The notes below the pieces were generated by a model that was given only the letters and a program-made list of their open reading frames with translations, ran no database searches and had not been told where the DNA came from. A DNA stretch of 64,000 bases. Source: an uncultured Gammaproteobacteria bacterium. GTDB taxonomy: Bacteria > Patescibacteriota > Patescibacteriia > Patescibacteriales > UBA12465. This document shows, one piece after another, positions 5,784-36,792 of the stretch (its first letter is position 1; every line of letters begins with the position of its first letter). The stretch is from NCBI GenBank assembly GCA_964639785.1, contig CAZXEE010000001.1:243832-307831 (forward strand), given 5' to 3'. Both the position numbers and the translations under genes were made by a program.

Positions 5784-6710
5784 ATGAAAATATTAGTGAC
5801 CGGCGGCGCCGGCTTTATCGGTTCTAATCTGGTGGACAAGCTGATAGAGGCTGGACATCAGGTGGTGATCATCGATAACTTGTCTACGGGTTTGAAGGAA
5901 TATATCAATCCTCAGGCTCATTTCTATCAGATCGATATCTCCGCTCCGAAGGTGGAAGAGATCTTCGCTCTTCAGAAATTCGATGCTGTTTTCCATCTGG
6001 CTGCTCAGATCAGCGTGGTGAAATCAGTGGAGAGTCCGGAGTTTGATAACCAGGTTAATGTCTTGGGCGGATTGAATATCTTGTCTTGTTGTCTGAAGCA
6101 TAATGTAAAGAAAATTATTTTCGTCTCGACCGGAGGCGCTTTATATGGCGAGGCGGAAGTGATCCCGACCCCGGAAGATTATCCGACTTATCCTTTGTCA
6201 CCTTATGGCATCCACAAGCTGACCTTTGAGAAATACCTGAATTATTATCATCAAGTTTTCGGCCAGCCCTATACTATCTTGCGCTTAGCTAATGTCTATG
6301 GTCCGCGCCAATACAAGGGCGGGGAATGCGGCGTCGTCTCGGTCTTTATCGATAATGCCGTCAATGGTCGCGAGAGCATCATCAACGGCGATGGTTCGAA
6401 GACGCGCGATTTTGTCTATGTCGGCGATGTCGTCTCGGCCCTCCTGAAAGCGATGGACACCGATTATATCGGCGCTGTCAATATTGGAACTGGAGTCGAG
6501 AAGAGCGTCAGTGATGTCGTCCTGGCAATCGAACTGGCATTGGGCAAGAGCATCTCGAAGAAAAATGGTCCGGCCAAGGCGGGCGAACAGGAAAGGAGCT
6601 GTTTGGACAACCGGAAAGCGAAAGAGATTCTAGGTTGGGAGCCGCAGGTCATGCTGGACGAGGGAATCAAGAAAACAATCGCTTGGTCGAAAGAGAAATT
6701 GGAAAAATAA
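5784..6710 (+). CDS. NAD-dependent sugar epimerase/dehydratase (UDP-glucose 4-epimerase-like SDR)
   Basis: N-terminal Rossmann motif MKILVTGGAGFIGSNLV and catalytic YGIHK (YxxxK). 308 aa. Confidence 0.8.
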   Translation: MKILVTGGAGFIGSNLVDKLIEAGHQVVIIDNLSTGLKEYINPQAHFYQIDISAPKVEEIFALQKFDAVFHLAAQISVVKSVESPEFDNQVNVLGGLNILSCCLKHNVKKIIFVSTGGALYGEAEVIPTPEDYPTYPLSPYGIHKLTFEKYLNYYHQVFGQPYTILRLANVYGPRQYKGGECGVVSVFIDNAVNGRESIINGDGSKTRDFVYVGDVVSALLKAMDTDYIGAVNIGTGVEKSVSDVVLAIELALGKSISKKNGPAKAGEQERSCLDNRKAKEILGWEPQVMLDEGIKKTIAWSKEKLEK

Positions 6711-15285: not shown

Positions 15286-15717
15286 ATGAAAAATAAAAAA
15301 GCTTTTACTTTGTTAGAAATCTTGTTAGTAGTCGCTGCGATTGCTATTTTAGCCGGTATCGTCATTTTGGCTATCAACCCGACTAAGCAGTTAGGTGACA
15401 CTAGAAATTCCCAGCGCCGTATCGATGTTAACACCATCTTGAATGCTGTTTATCAATACGCTATCGATAATAATGGCACCTTGCCAGCATCCGTAACTAC
15501 TACTGTCCAGAATATTTGTAAAACTGGCGGCAGCACATCTTCTTGTGCTGATCTATCAGTTTTGACTACCGACGCTAAGTATTTGGTTTCTATTCCAACC
15601 GATCCATCTGGAGCTGAGACTTATGCTAACTACAATATCCAGAGAACTGCTACTGGCCGCATTACTGTTTCCGCTCCAAATGCTGAACAGGGTGCTACCA
15701 TCTCCGTTACTAGATAA
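15286..15717 (+). CDS. Type IV major pilin paralogue 1 (143 aa)
   Basis: MKNKKAFTLLEILLVVAAIAILAGIVILAI prepilin N-terminus. Two conserved Cys. C-terminus GATISVTR. Confidence 0.85.
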   Translation: MKNKKAFTLLEILLVVAAIAILAGIVILAINPTKQLGDTRNSQRRIDVNTILNAVYQYAIDNNGTLPASVTTTVQNICKTGGSTSSCADLSVLTTDAKYLVSIPTDPSGAETYANYNIQRTATGRITVSAPNAEQGATISVTR

Positions 15718-15790
15718 TAAATATGTGATAGAATCTGCCTGCTTTCTTTTCTGAAATCGGGCAGACTGGATTATGTATTTATCATTTTCC

Positions 15791-15815
15791 TTTAGCTGCA
15801 AAAGGTCGAGCTAAA
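15791..15815 (+). promoter_or_regulatory. Conserved leader hairpin, copy 2
   Basis: Same 25-nt sequence as at 15236, 26 nt before ATG 15841. Confidence 0.5.
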
Positions 15816-15840
15816 TAACCTTTAATTTATCAATAAACAT

Positions 15841-16293
15841 ATGAAAAATAAAAAAGCTTTTACTTTGTTAGAAATCTTGTTAGTAGTCGCTGCGATTGCT
15901 ATTTTAGCCGGTATCGTCATCTTGGCTATCAACCCGACTAAGCAGTTAGGTGACACTAGGAATTCCCAGCGCCGTATTGATGTCAACACTATCTTGAATG
16001 CTGTTTATCAATACGCCGTTGATAATAACGGCAATCTGCCGACTATTATCCCGACTTCCACTGCTACCGTTACTTACGGTATCTGTAAGACTAATGCTAC
16101 CCCAACCACCAGTTGTTATGACTTATCAGTTTTGACTGATAATGCTAAATACTTGGTTTCCATTCCAACTGATCCATCTGGAGTTATCAATACCGTTGAT
16201 AGCAATTATCGTATCCAGAGAACCTCTACTGGCCGCGTTACTGTCTGGGCTAATGCTCCGGAACAGGGTGCTACCATTTCCGTTACTCGCTAA
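15841..16293 (+). CDS. Type IV major pilin paralogue 2 (150 aa)
   Basis: First 59 aa identical to paralogue 1. The central loop and the segment after DPSG are divergent. Confidence 0.85.
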   Translation: MKNKKAFTLLEILLVVAAIAILAGIVILAINPTKQLGDTRNSQRRIDVNTILNAVYQYAVDNNGNLPTIIPTSTATVTYGICKTNATPTTSCYDLSVLTDNAKYLVSIPTDPSGVINTVDSNYRIQRTSTGRVTVWANAPEQGATISVTR

Positions 16294-16366
16294 TAAATAT
16301 GCGATAGAATCTGCCTGCTTTCTTTTCTGAAATCGGGCAGACTGGATTATGTATTTATCATTTTCC

Positions 16367-16391
16367 TTTAGCTGCAAAAGGTCGAGCTAAA
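16367..16391 (+). promoter_or_regulatory. Conserved leader hairpin, copy 3
   Basis: Same 25-nt sequence, 26 nt before ATG 16417. Confidence 0.5.
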
Positions 16392-16416
16392 TAACCTTTA
16401 ATTTATCAATAAACAT

Positions 16417-16854
16417 ATGAAAAATAAAAAAGCTTTTACTTTGTTAGAAATCTTGTTAGTAGTCGCTGCGATTGCTATTTTAGCCGGTATCGTCATCTTG
16501 GCTATCAACCCGACTAAGCAGTTAGGTGACACTAGGAATTCTCAGCGCCGTATTGATGTTAACACCATCTTGAATGCTGTTTACCAATACGCTATCGACA
16601 ACAATGGCACTTTGCCAACAGCCGTAACTACTACTGTCAAGAGCGTTTGCAAGACTGATGCCGAAAGCACTTCCACTTGTGCCGATTTGTCAGTTCTAAC
16701 TACTGATGCTAAATACTTGGTTTCCATTCCAACTGATCCATCCGGAGCCGGTACTAATGATTCCAATTACAGCATCTTGAGAACCGCTACCGGTCGTATC
16801 ACTGTTTCTGCTCCAAATGCTGAACAGGGTGCTACTATTTCCGTTACTAGATAA
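16417..16854 (+). CDS. Type IV major pilin paralogue 3 (145 aa)
   Basis: Same N- and C-termini as paralogues 1 and 2, with a divergent centre. Confidence 0.85.
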   Translation: MKNKKAFTLLEILLVVAAIAILAGIVILAINPTKQLGDTRNSQRRIDVNTILNAVYQYAIDNNGTLPTAVTTTVKSVCKTDAESTSTCADLSVLTTDAKYLVSIPTDPSGAGTNDSNYSILRTATGRITVSAPNAEQGATISVTR

Positions 16855-26251: not shown

Positions 26252-26617
26252 ATGCGCAAAAAATTAATCTTATTAATTTTGCCGATGCTTTTTACTTTTT
26301 TGGTAGCTTTTCCGGTAATTGCTGCTAGCACTAATAATACTAGCGTTGTCAGCCTGAACAATCCTCTTGCCGCTGCTGGAGTAACCACTCCGCAACAATT
26401 GATTGGTAAAGTGATTAGCGCCATCTTGGGAGTTATCGGTTCCGTTGCTTTATTGATGTTTGTCTATGGCGGTTTTGTTTGGATGACAGCAGCTGGAAAT
26501 GAGAAGAAGGTTAGTCAGGGCAGGGACGTATTGATGTGGGCTGCCATCGGTTTAGTTATCATCTTTATCTCCTACGCCGCTGTCAAATTCTTGATTGGGG
26601 AAGTGATCGGAGTTTAA
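26252..26617 (+). CDS. Small TrbC/VirB2-like (type IV secretion pilin-like) membrane protein
   Basis: Signal peptide, ..NPLAAAGVTTPQQLIGKVI.., then two TM helices separated by MTAAGNEKKVSQGRD. This layout is typical of VirB2-like pilins common in CPR genomes. Confidence 0.5.
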   Translation: MRKKLILLILPMLFTFLVAFPVIAASTNNTSVVSLNNPLAAAGVTTPQQLIGKVISAILGVIGSVALLMFVYGGFVWMTAAGNEKKVSQGRDVLMWAAIGLVIIFISYAAVKFLIGEVIGV

Positions 26618-28154: not shown

Positions 28155-29324
28155 ATGGACAACAAACTAAGCAAGCCGTTTTTGCTCTTGTTGGTCGTTT
28201 TTGTTTTAGCTGCCTGCTATCTGGTCTTCAAGCCGTTCTTGATCGAGATCGTTATTGCAGCCGTTCTGGTTTCTATCCTTTACAAGCCGTATGACAAGAT
28301 CAGGCGTCTTTTGGGCAATAGCCGGAATGCCGCTGCCTTGATTATGTGCTTGTCGGTCATTATCTTGATCGTTCTGCCTTTGTCGGAAGGGATGATCCTG
28401 GCTGGGAGAAAATCAGTTACAGCCTATAACGACGTTGTCCAGTTCTTTGGCCAGAATAATGAAGTTATCCAGAGTAAATATCTGAGACAATTGGATTTTG
28501 TCGGTTTAGATAATAGCAATGTAGAGAATTTCGTGATAGACATCGTCAAGCGCTCCAGCGATTGGATGGTGGGAGCGGCAACCTTTATCTTGAAGGGAAC
28601 TACCAGCTTCTTCGTTTCCTTGTTCTTTATCATCTTCGCTATGTTCTTTTTCTTTAGGGACGGCGAACGGATGCTGCGGAAACTGATGCTCTGGTCTCCG
28701 CTTCAGGACAAGTACAATTTGCGTCTTTTCAAGAAGTTCAAAGATGTCAGCTATTCGACTATCATTTCAACTTTCGTAACAGCTTTTGCCCAAGGCATCG
28801 TCGGTGCCATCGGTTATGCGATAATTGGTGTTCCGGCTTTTTTCCCAGGTATCTTGATAGCTTTCACTTCGCTTTTGCCATATATCGGTTCGATGCTGAT
28901 CTATATCCCGACTGGTATCTATCTGCTTATCACCGGTCAGATCTGGCAAGGTATATTCATCCTGTTGTGGGGGGCGATAGTTATCGGTAATACTGATAAT
29001 ATTATCCGGACCTATATGATCCAGGGTAAGGCTCATGTCAATCCGGTTTTCGTTTTCTTTTCTATCTTGGGGGGCGTTTCCTTGTTCGGTTTCTGGGGCG
29101 TAGTTATCGGTCCGTTAATCATCTCTATCGCTATCACCGTTTTCCATATCTATGAATTGGAGTATGGCTTGGTGCCGGAAGAGGAGGTTAAGGAGATTGT
29201 TGCTTCAGACAAGATTGATCAGAAACGGATAATGGAGAAAAATAAACAGGAGGAGGCAGAAGCTGCAAAAGAAAGGAAGGAAGAATTGAAAGAGAAGAAA
29301 GAAAAGGAAAAGGAGAAAAAATAA
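28155..29324 (+). CDS. AI-2E family transporter (PerM/UPF0118) with a Lys/Glu-rich tail
   Basis: Multi-TM protein with ..FVTAFAQGIVGAIGYAIIGVPAFFPGILIAFTSLLPYIGS.. typical of the family. The C-terminus is KE-rich. Confidence 0.75.
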   Translation: MDNKLSKPFLLLLVVFVLAACYLVFKPFLIEIVIAAVLVSILYKPYDKIRRLLGNSRNAAALIMCLSVIILIVLPLSEGMILAGRKSVTAYNDVVQFFGQNNEVIQSKYLRQLDFVGLDNSNVENFVIDIVKRSSDWMVGAATFILKGTTSFFVSLFFIIFAMFFFFRDGERMLRKLMLWSPLQDKYNLRLFKKFKDVSYSTIISTFVTAFAQGIVGAIGYAIIGVPAFFPGILIAFTSLLPYIGSMLIYIPTGIYLLITGQIWQGIFILLWGAIVIGNTDNIIRTYMIQGKAHVNPVFVFFSILGGVSLFGFWGVVIGPLIISIAITVFHIYELEYGLVPEEEVKEIVASDKIDQKRIMEKNKQEEAEAAKERKEELKEKKEKEKEKK

Positions 29325-29337
29325 TCAGATTATTTAT

Positions 29338-29408
29338 ACGGGATTCGTATAGTGGTAGTACAGCGGACTCCAAACCCGCTGGCGGGGGTTCGATTCCTCC
29401 ATCCCGTG
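29338..29408 (+). tRNA. tRNA-Trp (anticodon CCA)
   Basis: Acceptor ACGGGAT/ATCCCGT, anticodon loop CTCCAAA (the 31-39 pair is an A-C mismatch), T arm GGGGG-TTCGATT-CCTCC. Confidence 0.8.
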
Positions 29409-29417
29409 CAATATCAA

Positions 29418-29448
29418 AGAGACACAGCGACGCTGTGTCTCTTTTTTT
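29418..29448 (+). terminator. Intrinsic terminator after tRNA-Trp
   Basis: AGAGACACAG-cgacg-CTGTGTCTCT followed by TTTTTT. Confidence 0.85.
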
Positions 29449-29452
29449 ATGT

Positions 29453-29481
29453 TTGACAATTTCAGAGATATTGGATATTAT
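29453..29481 (+). promoter_or_regulatory. Sigma70-type promoter of an ORF-less transcription unit
   Basis: TTGACA-N17-TATTAT, directly after the tRNA-Trp terminator. Confidence 0.6.
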
Positions 29482-29487
29482 TGAGCT

Positions 29488-29734
29488 AACAGTGGTGGAG
29501 ATTAACCGGATCCACCATCTCCTCATAAGAGGCGACATGCTTAAGGTTATTATCAGTTTTTAAAATTGTTCTAAGTAGCGGCAAGCGAACAGGCAAGCAA
29601 AGGGGGGTCTGAACGGATAAGGCTCATATCCTAATACTCTTCGCCCTTTTATCAATATTTTTTAAACTGATGATTTTTAAATCGGACCACCGAAATTTAT
29701 AAAGCAAAGCTTTGTAGAAATCGGTGGTTTTTTC
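29488..29734 (+). ncRNA. Candidate structured small RNA (~245 nt), class unknown
   Basis: Bounded by its own promoter and by the long hairpin CCACCGA...TCGGTGG plus TTTTTT (29687-29734). No ORF longer than 8 codons. Internal helices include ATCAGTTT/AAACTGAT long-range pairing, GGATA-N7-TATCC and AAAGGG/CCCTTT. Confidence 0.4.
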
Positions 29735-29741
29735 TTTGTCA

Positions 29742-29770
29742 TTGACATTATTAATATATCGTGGTATTAT
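29742..29770 (+). promoter_or_regulatory. Sigma70-type promoter for the 29797 gene
   Basis: TTGACA-N17-TATTAT, the same hexamers as the promoter at 29453. Confidence 0.6.
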
Positions 29771-29796
29771 TAAAGGTCCTTTAAAATGTTGTAGAA

Positions 29797-30093
29797 ATGA
29801 AAAAAGAAGTTAAAAAATCGGAACCAAGGAAGTTATCTCTGGATGAGGTAACCACCCTTGAACGCTGGAGGTATGCCAGAAGCATGGCTACTGATCCGGT
29901 GGAAGTCAAAAAGCTCGATACGATCGCCAGGATAATTGCTCAGAATGATGTTAAGTCTGCCGTTATCTTTATCCGGGGGCACTGGTCCATCAGTCCGGAC
30001 CTCATATTGATCGTTTTCGGAGTCTTGGTCAGAAGCCAATATATTCTGGCTAAAAAGCTAAGGAAGGAAATTAAGTTTTCCTTTGTCGTTTAA
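29797..30093 (+). CDS. Hypothetical protein (98 aa)
   Basis: ORF between a consensus promoter and a hairpin terminator. No motif recognised. Confidence 0.5.
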   Translation: MKKEVKKSEPRKLSLDEVTTLERWRYARSMATDPVEVKKLDTIARIIAQNDVKSAVIFIRGHWSISPDLILIVFGVLVRSQYILAKKLRKEIKFSFVV

Positions 30094-30235: not shown

Positions 30236-30265
30236 AAAAGGCCGCCAAAAGGCCGCCAAAAGGCC
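30236..30265 (+). repeat. 11-bp tandem repeat (AAAAGGCCGCC x2.7) at the 5' end of kup
   Basis: Units at 30236-30246 and 30247-30257, with a partial third at 30258-30265. Confidence 0.95.
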
Positions 30266-32243: not shown

Positions 32244-32618
32244 ATGAACTTAGCTCCGAAGAGAAGTTTCTTGGCCTGGGGGTTGCTGTTATTGGCCGTC
32301 TTGGCTTTGATTTATTTCATCAGTCCGCATCGGGCTGATTATCTGCGGTATCTTAGGGAGCCGCAAGCGGGTATCGCTCTCCACCAACCCCTAACCCTAG
32401 AAGACGTTCCCATGATCCAATCCTGGATGACCTTTGATTATCTTAATCGGGTTTTCGGTTTGCCGGCTTATTACCTAGCGGCTGTCTTGGAGATTAATGA
32501 TGAGAATTATCCGAATCTGGTTATCCAGCATTATGTCAGTGACCAGGGGTTGGATCTACAGTCGTTTTCAGCTCGAGTCCAGGCGGTGATAACTGATTAT
32601 CTAAGTTCAAAGCCATGA
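32244..32618 (+). CDS. Hypothetical membrane-anchored protein (124 aa)
   Basis: N-terminal TM FLAWGLLLLAVLALIYFI. Its stop overlaps the next start (ATGA at 32615). Confidence 0.5.
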   Translation: MNLAPKRSFLAWGLLLLAVLALIYFISPHRADYLRYLREPQAGIALHQPLTLEDVPMIQSWMTFDYLNRVFGLPAYYLAAVLEINDENYPNLVIQHYVSDQGLDLQSFSARVQAVITDYLSSKP

Positions 32619-33223
32619 GTTCTATCTTAGCTCTAGCTTTATCTTATGTTTTGCTCTATAAATACCTGGCGCTATTTATCATGATTTTCGGGGCGGCTTT
32701 GGTTTTGCCGATCCCGTCCAATGTCGTCATGATCGCGGTTGGCGTGTTCTGCAATCAGGGCTATATGGATCCGCTGGCTTCTTTTGCGGTGATTTTTCTG
32801 GCTAATGTCCTGGGTGACTTAGCTGGTTATTTTTTGACTAGGCATTACGGCCAATCCCTTTGGCAGAGATTCATCCGTCGCCAGCCCGCCTATCTCGTTA
32901 ATCTGGAAAGATACATCAAGAGTTCGGTCGGTTGGACGATTGTCATTACGCGCTTCATCAATACTATCGGATTCGTGGTTAATCTTTTTTGCGATTTGGT
33001 TAAGTTGCCTTTCAAAAAATTTTTGGGCTGGGACATCATCGGCAATATATTGGGAATTTCATTGATGATGGTCATCGGTTTCGTCTTCAGCAAATATTGG
33101 GGGCAGGCTGCTGATTTTGCCAATCTATTCAGTCTCGGATTGCTGTTTATCTTGATAGTTTCAGTGATTATCAAGATTACCTCCTGGAATCGTCATCGGC
33201 CGCCGGAAATGGCAGTGAAATAA
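32615..33223 (+). CDS. DedA/SNARE-associated (VTT domain) family membrane protein
   Basis: ..LVLPIPSNVVMIAVG.. and ..FLANVLGDLAGYFLTRHYG.. fit the DedA pattern. Confidence 0.6.
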   Translation: MSSILALALSYVLLYKYLALFIMIFGAALVLPIPSNVVMIAVGVFCNQGYMDPLASFAVIFLANVLGDLAGYFLTRHYGQSLWQRFIRRQPAYLVNLERYIKSSVGWTIVITRFINTIGFVVNLFCDLVKLPFKKFLGWDIIGNILGISLMMVIGFVFSKYWGQAADFANLFSLGLLFILIVSVIIKITSWNRHRPPEMAVK

Positions 33224-34472: not shown

Positions 34473-34501
34473 TTGACTTAGTTTTAGGTTTGTTGTACCA
34501 T
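34473..34501 (+). promoter_or_regulatory. Sigma70-type promoter of an ORF-less unit
   Basis: TTGACT-N17-TACCAT. Confidence 0.4.
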
Positions 34502-34507
34502 TTGGTT

Positions 34508-34655
34508 TATGAATTTGGTTCTTTCTGAAGAATATAAAGATTGTAGGATTGATAGCTAGTACTGATGGTCTGGGTGCGGCCATACAGTCGTAAGAGGATG
34601 AAGCGAAAGTCCGCTAGTGATACAATCCGCCTCCCTGGAAACAGGGAGGTTTTTT
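34508..34655 (+). ncRNA. Candidate structured small RNA (~150 nt), class unknown
   Basis: Closing helix GGATTG..CAATCC extended by ATAGCTAG/CTAGTGAT. Inner hairpin ACTG-ATGGTC-tgggtgc-GGCCAT-a-CAGT. Strong terminator CCTCCCTG-gaaa-CAGGGAGG plus TTTTTT. About 130 nt of AT-rich DNA separates it from the next ATG. Confidence 0.4.
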
Positions 34656-34783
34656 ATTTTTTAAAGGAATTGAATAATAATATTTAGCATAATTTTTGAA
34701 ATAATATCTTCGGTTGTTGGTTATTTTTCATTAAAATGCTATAATATAATCTGAACCCAAGATAATAATTAAATCCAGTTTAT

Positions 34784-34987
34784 ATGAAAAAAAATGAGAG
34801 CTTGATAGACCGTTTTGCCCGGATCGTCATCGCTTTGCTGGTGATGTTCGTGGCTTATGTGATGTTGACCGGTTTCTGGCAGTGGGTAGCTTATGCCTTT
34901 TCCGCTTTCCTGGCTATCAGCGCCGGTACCGGAGTCTGTCTGATTTATAAATTGCTCGGTATCAACACCAACAAATTAGATTATTAA
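34784..34987 (+). CDS. DUF2892 (YgaP-TM-like) small membrane protein
   Basis: ..IDRFARIVIALLVMFVAY...LAISAGTGVCLIYKLLGINT fits the DUF2892 pattern. Confidence 0.6.
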   Translation: MKKNESLIDRFARIVIALLVMFVAYVMLTGFWQWVAYAFSAFLAISAGTGVCLIYKLLGINTNKLDY

Positions 34988-35002
34988 TCTGAAACTTCTA
35001 TT

Positions 35003-35033
35003 AAAAAACCCTATTCTGAGAATAGGGTTTTTT
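35003..35033. terminator. Bidirectional terminator
   Basis: AAAAAACCCTATTC-tgag-AATAGGGTTTTTT. Confidence 0.8.
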
Positions 35034-35043
35034 ATTTATTCGA

Positions 35044-36792
35044 TTAAGCATTCAATATCAGCCACTCATCTTCTTTTTCTTTGATAGCCATTTTGGTTTC
35101 TTCCAGTTCTTTAACCTTGATAGGGTCATAGCTGCTGGGATTCTTAAGGAAGAAATCAATCAGTTTCTTTTCTTTGTTTTTTAATTTTTCCAGATCTCTT
35201 TCCAGGCTTTTAGTCATCTTCTGGTTTTCTTTTTTTTCTAAGTATCTGTTCCTGGCCTCTTCGTTCTTATTATTATTGGAATTACTCTCGGCTATTTCTC
35301 GCTCCAATTGTTTTTCTAATCTGTCGACATATTCTTCATAGCTTTCCATCAGCTGCTTGGCCTGTCCGTTCTTGATTTCCACCAATCCGGTAGCCAGCAG
35401 ATTGGTAAAGGTTCGGTCATGGCTGGTGAAGATGATGGTGCCGTTCCATCTTTGTAAAGCTGAGCCGAGAGCTTCAGTGGTTTCAAAGTCGAGGTGGCAG
35501 GTCGGTTCATCCAAAATGAAGATATCCGGTTTGGATAATAGCAGTCCGGCGAGAAGCAGGCGGGATTTTTCGCCGCCGGATAGGACGCCGATCGGTTTCT
35601 TCAGCTCTTCATCTTTGAAAAGGAAATCTCCAGCCATCTTCAAGACTGATTCGGTCTTGATTTCGGCGGCAGCTGAGCGCCTAAGGTAGGTTCCGACCTG
35701 TTCCTTGTCGTTTAAGGTAATGATAGCTTCTTGGCCGTGATAGGCGATGCGGCTATCAGTTGAGAGCCGGAAAGAGCCGGAAACGACCGGTAAAGATCCG
35801 ATTATCGTCCGGATAAAGGTAGTTTTGCCTTGGCCGTTTAAACCGAGGATAGATATCTTTTCGCTGGATCGGCAATCGATATTGATGTCTGAAACTATGG
35901 CTTGGCCGTCATAGCCGATAGCCAGGTCGTTCGTCCGCAGGGCGATATTGTGGCGCTTGATGGTTGGCGGGATATTGATCCGGGTGATACCGGCGCGATG
36001 TTCGATAGTGATCCGTTTGTTTTCCATTTTGCTGATCTTCTTGATGACTGCCTGCGCTTGCTTGGCTTTAGTAGCCTTGAATCGGAAGCGATCAACGAAC
36101 TCCTGCATATGTTTCTGTTGGCGGTCCAGGCTTTCATTGGCTTTGATCAGGGCAGCCAGCTTTTGTTCCTTGAAAGCGAGATAGGCTTCAATGTTGCCGG
36201 AATAGTGGTAGCAGCCGGTGGCGGATATGTCTAGAGTTTCATGACAGGTCCGTTTGAGGAATTCTCGGTCATGGGAGATGATGAGGAAGCTGCCTTTATA
36301 TGACTTCAGATAGTTTTCTAGTAATAATAAAGTGTTCAAGTCCAGATAGTTAGTTGGTTCATCGAGCAGGAAGAGGTTCGGTTCGTTTAAGAGCATGGCC
36401 GTCAGTTTCAAGCGCATGCGCCAGCCACCGGAAAGATTATCAGCTGGTCCGTTCAATTTGTCTTCGCCTAATTGGAACTTGGAGGCCAGTTTCTTGATAG
36501 TCCATTCTTCGCGCCCGCTGATCCGCTTGAGATAGTCTAGGGCGCTTTCTGAAATTTCGAATCTTTCCTCTTGTTTCAAGTAGCCGATCCGAGCTTCGCT
36601 CCCGATCATAATCTGTCCGTTATCGGCTGTTTCTTCGTTAGTGAGGATACGGAAGAGGGTGGATTTTCCGGCGCCGTTCTTGCCGATGACTCCGATCTTC
36701 TGGCGGGTGGAGACGGTAAAAGTGAGGCCGGAAAATATTTTCTGGCCGCTATAGCTTTTACTCAGATTGTTGACTTGGAGTAATATAGACAT
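35044..36792 (-). CDS. ABC-F family ATPase (two ABC domains, no TM; 582 aa from ATG 36792)
   Basis: Walker A GKNGAGKST and GLNGQGKTT. Signatures LSGGWRMRL and LSGGEKSRL. Coiled-coil C-terminal tail. Confidence 0.85.
   Translation of the reverse strand: MSILLQVNNLSKSYSGQKIFSGLTFTVSTRQKIGVIGKNGAGKSTLFRILTNEETADNGQIMIGSEARIGYLKQEERFEISESALDYLKRISGREEWTIKKLASKFQLGEDKLNGPADNLSGGWRMRLKLTAMLLNEPNLFLLDEPTNYLDLNTLLLLENYLKSYKGSFLIISHDREFLKRTCHETLDISATGCYHYSGNIEAYLAFKEQKLAALIKANESLDRQQKHMQEFVDRFRFKATKAKQAQAVIKKISKMENKRITIEHRAGITRINIPPTIKRHNIALRTNDLAIGYDGQAIVSDINIDCRSSEKISILGLNGQGKTTFIRTIIGSLPVVSGSFRLSTDSRIAYHGQEAIITLNDKEQVGTYLRRSAAAEIKTESVLKMAGDFLFKDEELKKPIGVLSGGEKSRLLLAGLLLSKPDIFILDEPTCHLDFETTEALGSALQRWNGTIIFTSHDRTFTNLLATGLVEIKNGQAKQLMESYEEYVDRLEKQLEREIAESNSNNNKNEEARNRYLEKKENQKMTKSLERDLEKLKNKEKKLIDFFLKNPSSYDPIKVKELEETKMAIKEKEDEWLILNA

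Follow-up and report, generated by a model that had tools for sequence, protein, structure and literature searches.

A candidate stand-alone small RNA gene of narrow distribution beside ORF98 and kup in a Candidatus Falkowbacteria genome

A short ORF-poor unit at positions 29453–29734 of the 64-kb stretch of DNA analysed here (the window) may be a stand-alone, species-specific gene for a small non-coding RNA. Its host is an uncultured Candidatus Falkowbacteria (CPR/Patescibacteria) with a genomic G+C content of 42%, and we put the probability of this reading at about 0.45. At the level of sequence, the unit has what marks an sRNA gene, namely a promoter of its own, an intrinsic terminator of its own and no credible ORF. 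Transcription would begin at about 29488 from a near-consensus promoter of the sigma-70 type and end at about 29733, where a very stable intrinsic terminator would halt RNA polymerase. The resulting RNA, about 245 nt long, would open with a 5' hairpin, continue with a G+C-richer central domain of loose structure and close with a 3' terminator hairpin and a U-tail. The class of the promoter, the strength of the terminator, the non-coding character of the unit and its independence of the neighbouring ORF98 can be read directly from the DNA; from these we infer that the unit is probably transcribed, and any function would likewise be deduced from them. The unit belongs to no described RNA family, and there is no indication that its RNA is conserved and elaborately folded in the manner of a riboswitch or a ribozyme. 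It is an orphan with no sign of conserved structure or function, an unverified candidate among lineage-specific sRNA genes.

On the plus strand, the genes run in the order fpg, L33, the AI-2E transporter gene (28155–29324), tRNA-Trp with its terminator, the unit, ORF98 and kup (Table 1). The closest relatives of the AI-2E transporter are found in Falkowbacteria or Patescibacteria MAGs (72–84% amino-acid identity). Promoter 1 of the unit begins 9 nt past the tRNA-Trp terminator (hairpin 29416–29444), and the unit illustrates how genes are punctuated in this genome, by near-consensus promoters and strong terminators. Throughout the window, the next promoter is often found within about 10 nt of a strong intrinsic terminator.

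Table 1. Positions in the window of the unit's features and of those next to it
Feature	Position	Strand	Details
tRNA-Trp (CCA)	29338–29409	+	ARAGORN; Rfam tRNA 58.1 bits
Intrinsic terminator of tRNA-Trp, 13-pair stem then T-run	29416–29448	+	−19.6 kcal/mol, z = −6.5
Synteny breakpoint, window vs strain L065	29446–29452	.	homology starts at 29446, 7 nt upstream of the −35 box
Promoter 1 (probable): −35 TTGACA 29453–29458, 17-nt spacer, −10 TATTAT 29476–29481	29453–29481	+	11/12 matches
5' hairpin (predicted): 8 pairs (GUGGUGGA/UCCACCAU), 11-nt loop	29492–29518	+	pair probability 0.99; alone z = −1.56, not significant
Central domain (predicted), closed by AT-rich long-range helix	29549–29674	+	arms 29549–29566/29657–29674, 83% complementary; inverted repeat I3
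Intrinsic terminator of the unit: 19-pair hairpin, 2x2 internal loop, then T6 (29728–29733)	29685–29733	+	−24.1 kcal/mol, z = −7.6; inverted repeat I2
Promoter 2 (for ORF98; outside the unit, its right-hand limit): TTGACA-17-TATTAT, extended −10 TG	29742–29770	+	conserved before ORF98 homologues, L063/L064
ORF98, neighbour of the unit	29797–30093	+	codon-usage score 0.19, within gene range

Near-consensus promoters are rare in the window and not randomly placed there. Counting both strands, there are 10 sites with at least 11/12 matches, as against 1.5 ± 1.2 expected from 100 dinucleotide shuffles (about sevenfold), and a comparison of coordinate lists places each of the remaining nine at or just upstream of the start of an ORF or a tRNA. 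Because such sites are rare and all the others adjoin gene or tRNA starts, promoter 1 is probably genuine, and its spacing predicts a transcription start at about 29488 and a transcript reaching to about 29733, roughly 246 nt. The hairpin of the unit's terminator occupies 29685–29729, with CCACCGA (29687–29693) pairing with TCGGTGG (29721–29727). It does not appear in the output of a simple terminator scan, which probably missed it because of the internal loop. Both elements had been pointed out in an earlier annotation made from the letters alone (the sequence-only reading), which placed the promoter directly after the tRNA-Trp terminator and the long hairpin terminator about 245 nt downstream, and both are borne out here.

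The left-hand limit of the unit emerges from comparison with other assemblies. Two loci, L001 and L002, match the window at 100% identity, and the only other copy of the unit is in a second strain, L065/L066 (Logan SRR16642448, found by cluster look-up), which is 98.0% identical over 5.66 kb. Left of the breakpoint, the window carries the AI-2E transporter gene and tRNA-Trp, and L065 carries MazG-like and cupin genes (1–1030). Since homology starts at 29446 and the DNA to its left is different in L065, the unit forms the left end of the ORF98–kup block and is unrelated to tRNA-Trp; judging from this alignment, it is co-inherited with the block on its right and not with the tRNA gene on its left. 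The L065 copy shows zero differences (100% identity), so it gives no covariation. Nor does this identity speak for selection, since the two strains also agree at about 99.9% of positions over most of the flanking 5.6 kb, recombination patches aside. They diverge in a mosaic, in which long stretches of about 99.9% identity are interrupted by patches that are roughly 7–11% diverged (for instance in the 3' two-thirds of ORF98 and around 34840–35092).

The arrangement in L065 also bears on the possibility that the unit is mainly a terminator or 3'-UTR module of the gene upstream, with promoter 1 being secondary or incidental. In that strain, no terminator stands in the 22 nt that separate the end of the cupin gene from the −35 box of promoter 1, and the unit's terminator is the first one downstream of the cupin operon. 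We nevertheless consider this explanation improbable, since tRNA-Trp in the window has a strong terminator of its own, which would make an extra 245 nt and a second terminator superfluous, and since a near-consensus promoter of the class that adjoins genes would be left unexplained. The two strains also differ at a gene for a VTT-domain protein (32615–33223, 202 aa), which is called as 75 aa in L065 (4177–4404); a 1-nt insertion opposite about 32829 probably shifts its frame in that strain.

On the right, the unit is bounded by promoter 2, whose −10 box reads TATTGT in strain L065. In the two loci that harbour homologues of ORF98 (L063, 337–741; L064, 3001–3201), DNA homology to the window starts at about 29726–29732 and takes in promoter 2 and ORF98, and the DNA upstream holds an ordinary gene and a terminator but no unit. 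Because promoter 2 and ORF98 are conserved there without the unit, promoter 2 belongs to ORF98 and the unit is not the leader of this gene; the sequence-only reading had come to the same view from the second promoter with the same hexamers, which it took to drive the next gene. We give a very slim chance to a cis-regulatory leader (riboswitch or attenuator) that would control read-through transcription of ORF98 and of kup, the gene of a K+ transporter. In its favour, the unit lies upstream of both genes on the same strand and accompanies them in both strains, riboswitches often control K+ transporter genes in other phyla, and the succession of a domain closed by a helix, a terminator and then a transporter gene resembles the layout of riboswitch and T-box leaders. 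Unlike such leaders, however, the unit gives no riboswitch or T-box match in Rfam even at E ≤ 10, and inspection revealed no plausible antiterminator, with about 5 alternative pairs set against a terminator of −24 kcal/mol. Moreover, a separate promoter precedes ORF98 and another kup, both of them retained in relatives without the unit, and riboswitch aptamers are normally widely conserved, whereas the unit is an orphan.

ORF98 itself is a real gene of a very rare protein family. An exhaustive HMMER search of 1.84 billion representatives yielded only two homologues that cover most of its length, P0122 (41% identity) and P0123 (51%), and a third protein, P0124 (1527 aa), with a short local match. 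ORF98 is without a match in Pfam and PHROG, and its PADLOC hit is non-significant (E = 0.058). The family shares the motif EV.T.EKWRYA...IF(I/V)R..W. Between the two strains, the 3' two-thirds of ORF98 are about 9–11% diverged amid identical flanks, a pattern suggestive of a recombination patch. Further downstream, an 11-nt tandem duplication (AAAAGGCCGCC, 2.7 copies, 30236–30265) lies just after the ATG of kup (30220) and shifts the frame. The longest kup ORF in the window thus starts at a TTG (30273) and encodes 629 aa, as compared with 640–643 aa in relatives, which start with MDTDKK..KKPLNLL; L065 has one repeat unit fewer and a full-length Kup of 643 aa. Assemblies from two samples (L001, L002) contain the duplication. 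It could be a recent mutation that inactivates Kup or truncates its N terminus, or a reversible one.

Within the predicted transcript, two small ORFs can be found, a 10-codon ATG ORF (29670–29702) and a 23-codon GTG ORF (29492–29563), and the earlier statement that no ORF exceeds 8 codons has to be corrected in this respect. Gene-like codon usage is seen in no frame on either strand, all scores being −0.15 or lower (gene mean 0.36, 5th percentile 0.11). Could the unit nevertheless be a gene for a small protein, encoded by the almost leaderless GTG ORF or by the ATG ORF? Shine-Dalgarno sequences are almost absent from the genes of this Falkowbacteria genome across the whole window, so a missing ribosome-binding site does not speak against a tiny ORF in the unit, and the GTG follows the predicted start of transcription by about 4 nt. 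Such a start would be out of line with the leaders that follow other promoters in the window (16–31 nt), the 23-codon ORF would leave a 3' UTR of about 170 nt, neither ORF has homologues, and the codon usage is not that of a gene. Taken together, these points make a small-protein gene decidedly improbable.

The composition of the unit is a different matter. Its body has a G+C content of 0.39 and its core 0.45, as against 0.20–0.33 in most spacers of the window, which sets the unit apart from ordinary spacer DNA. Frame +3 stays open for about 57 codons but for one internal TGA, reaches a TAA inside the terminator stem and includes a hydrophobic stretch. The translation of the longest near-open frame has no homologue among 5.8 billion proteins, and tblastx of the unit against all related loci gave nothing.

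Folding of the predicted transcript supports some of the proposed elements and weakens others. The sequence-only reading had described two mutually exclusive 5' hairpins; both are present in the sequence, but in the ensemble GGUGGA/UCCACC forms with a pair probability of 0.99 and the alternative GGAGAU/AUCUCC with a probability of about 0. The long-range helix AUCAGUUU/AAACUGAU, which was said to enclose a domain, is predicted with a pair probability of 0.99. Of the two helices proposed inside this domain, both can be drawn but are weak in the ensemble, GGAUA/UAUCC (hairpin 29615–29631) having a pair probability of 0.73 and AAAGGG/CCCUUU only 0.18, and the interior of the unit as a whole is poorly defined (ensemble diversity 38.9). 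The z-score of the whole unit (−3.96) is mostly due to the terminator hairpin. When the terminator is left out, the body (29488–29682) has z = −1.68 and 13 of 200 shuffles fold as well; for the helix-closed core domain, the values are z = −1.71 and 15 of 200. Unlike the promoter and the terminator, therefore, the internal structure of the unit is not beyond chance. The suggestion of a structured RNA thus holds for a stand-alone, ORF-less unit running from promoter to terminator, but not for the structure, given the folding of the body, the lack of any Rfam family and the lack, in the sequences searched, of a homologue diverged enough to reveal covariation.

No known RNA family accounts for the unit. 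At gathering thresholds, Rfam 15 recognizes only three tRNAs in the whole window and no family on the unit. When the region 29300–29900 was searched at E ≤ 10, the best overlaps were snoR19 (23.9 bits, gathering threshold 60), TEG147 (19.4 against 56) and tmRNA (7.2 against 47), all of which are noise or matches to the terminator only. The earlier failure to recognize SRP RNA, 6S RNA, tmRNA or RNase P is thereby upheld, as none of them rises above noise even at E ≤ 10. The unit is similar in size range to 6S RNA and large SRP RNA and, like them, has a stand-alone promoter and terminator; it differs in matching no covariance model, in 5' and 3' ends that form no 6S-like rod and in the absence of the SRP helix-8 motif. 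In addition, one would expect relatives to share a housekeeping RNA in recognizable form, whereas the unit is missing at the locus in every related locus examined.

The distribution of the unit is indeed narrow. In about 200 kb of related CPR loci, which cover the flanks of selected genes, blastn, nhmmer and a covariance model built from the core of this one sequence (R1) detected no homologue, R1 matching only itself over about 197 kb of CPR DNA. Neither the 64-kb window nor the related loci contain a further copy, and three patterns taken from the unit had 0 matches in viral contigs. A metagenome scan with one 19-mer gave 40 matches, all attributable to chance, with unrelated and mostly high-GC flanks; the best of them (L044/L029) falls inside a minus-strand ORF. 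The sequence-only reading had named a lack of conservation and covariation in relatives as grounds for rejecting its proposal, and such a lack is what the available sequences show, the identical L065 copy being the sole further instance among the CPR loci, viral contigs and metagenome 19-mer matches.

The flanks of the unit are more widely shared. The order fpg–L33–AI-2E–tRNA-Trp, or at least AI-2E followed by tRNA-Trp, is found in the loci of seven relatives, and tRNA-Trp is the last element on the left that is common to other Falkowbacteria. Among the AI-2E/tRNA-Trp relatives (L003–L017), the left flank is common only up to the 3' end of the tRNA, with no homologue of the unit beyond it; alignments of L003, L004, L005 and L014 lose homology just past this point, and the DNA downstream differs in each genome. 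In the closest kup relatives (L020–L022, 78–82% identity), homology begins only at the kup promoter, about 30153, and continues onward from there. Downstream of tRNA-Trp in L005 (6035–6750), a gene from about 6035 seems to be split into overlapping ORFs (6035–6256 and 6054–6491); from its translation we take it to resemble a short-chain dehydrogenase, and a pseudogene and an assembly error are both conceivable.

These observations bring in the main rival to an sRNA gene, a transcribed relic, in which the promoter and terminator were left behind by a cassette whose ORF has decayed or been deleted at a rearrangement-prone junction, and the RNA is without function. Several findings are consistent with it: the unit is restricted to one species-level lineage, gene order at the junction varies between near-identical strains and among all Falkowbacteria relatives, the G+C content is like that of coding sequence, frame +3 is interrupted by just one internal stop, and the folding is not significant. 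Pseudogene-like decay is also seen nearby, in the frameshifts of kup (window) and VTT (L065) and possibly in the L005 gene. Yet a promoter with 11/12 matches and a 19-pair terminator remain intact in a sequence with several stops in each frame, when neutral decay should erode both; furthermore, the best frame lacks any protein homologue, tblastx retrieves nothing, and the codon-usage scores are as poor as those of wrong frames. On balance, we find a relic somewhat unlikely.

If the sRNA gene is functional, its RNA most likely acts as a regulator in trans. Genes for bacterial sRNAs lie between other genes as independent units, with a sigma-70 promoter at one end and a Rho-independent terminator at the other, and they are often lineage-specific. 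The unit resembles them in its near-consensus promoter, its strong intrinsic terminator with a U-tail, its length of about 245 nt, its lack of a credible ORF, its intergenic position and its narrow phylogenetic distribution. It differs in having no identified target or seed region and no known RNA chaperone context. A search for target complementarity found nothing convincing, the match to the start of kup being 9 nt long, yet 12 of 65 genes have matches of at least 9 nt, and target prediction with RNAduplex returned unrealistic full-length duplexes. That the unit is a functional, recently evolved trans-acting RNA, co-inherited with ORF98–kup and possibly acting on K+ homeostasis or on ORF98, therefore strikes us as unlikely in this specific form.

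A number of other assignments were considered and rejected. The RNA of a type III toxin-antitoxin system does not fit, as 29453–29734 contains no tandem repeat and ORF98 has no match to a toxin family. For a type I toxin-antitoxin system or a cis-antisense RNA, only AT-rich matches of 9–10 nt to ORF98 and the 9-nt match to kup were available, of a length that is unexceptional among the 65 genes. A MITE or interspersed repeat is contradicted by the single copy in the window and related loci, the sole MITE-like trait being an 18-nt imperfect inverted repeat. No att-site repeat of the tRNA 3' end, as in an integrated element, occurs in the window. Finally, an origin by duplication of the kup 5' region was dismissed, as 154 of 500 shuffles reached the score of the local alignment, which is thus not significant.

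As far as we know, CPR/Patescibacteria are ultra-small bacteria with reduced genomes, and their RNA-based regulation is essentially unexplored; our literature search found no sRNA for Falkowbacteria. If transcribed and functional, the unit would exemplify a lineage-specific sRNA of this group. An orphan without conservation, a detectable target or exceptional structure raises no new question by itself, and the unit is of practical value as a clean candidate to which metatranscriptome reads can be mapped, together with a second, similar ORF-less unit at 34473–34660. The latter begins with a promoter-like sequence, TTGACT-17-TACCAT (9/12), followed over about 150 nt by a strong terminator (GCCTCCCTGGAAACAGGGAGGT plus T6, 34629–34650). 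A separate TATAAT box lies between this second unit and the gene for a YgaP-like membrane protein (34784–34987). Its fold has z = −3.5 with the terminator included, Rfam gives nothing on it at E ≤ 10, and it is identical in strain L065, with no differences. Elsewhere in the window, three pilin-like paralogues of 143–150 aa, each with an N-terminal methylation motif, are arranged in tandem with 123-nt spacers (15286–16854), and a type IV secretion pilin-like gene is located at 26252–26617.
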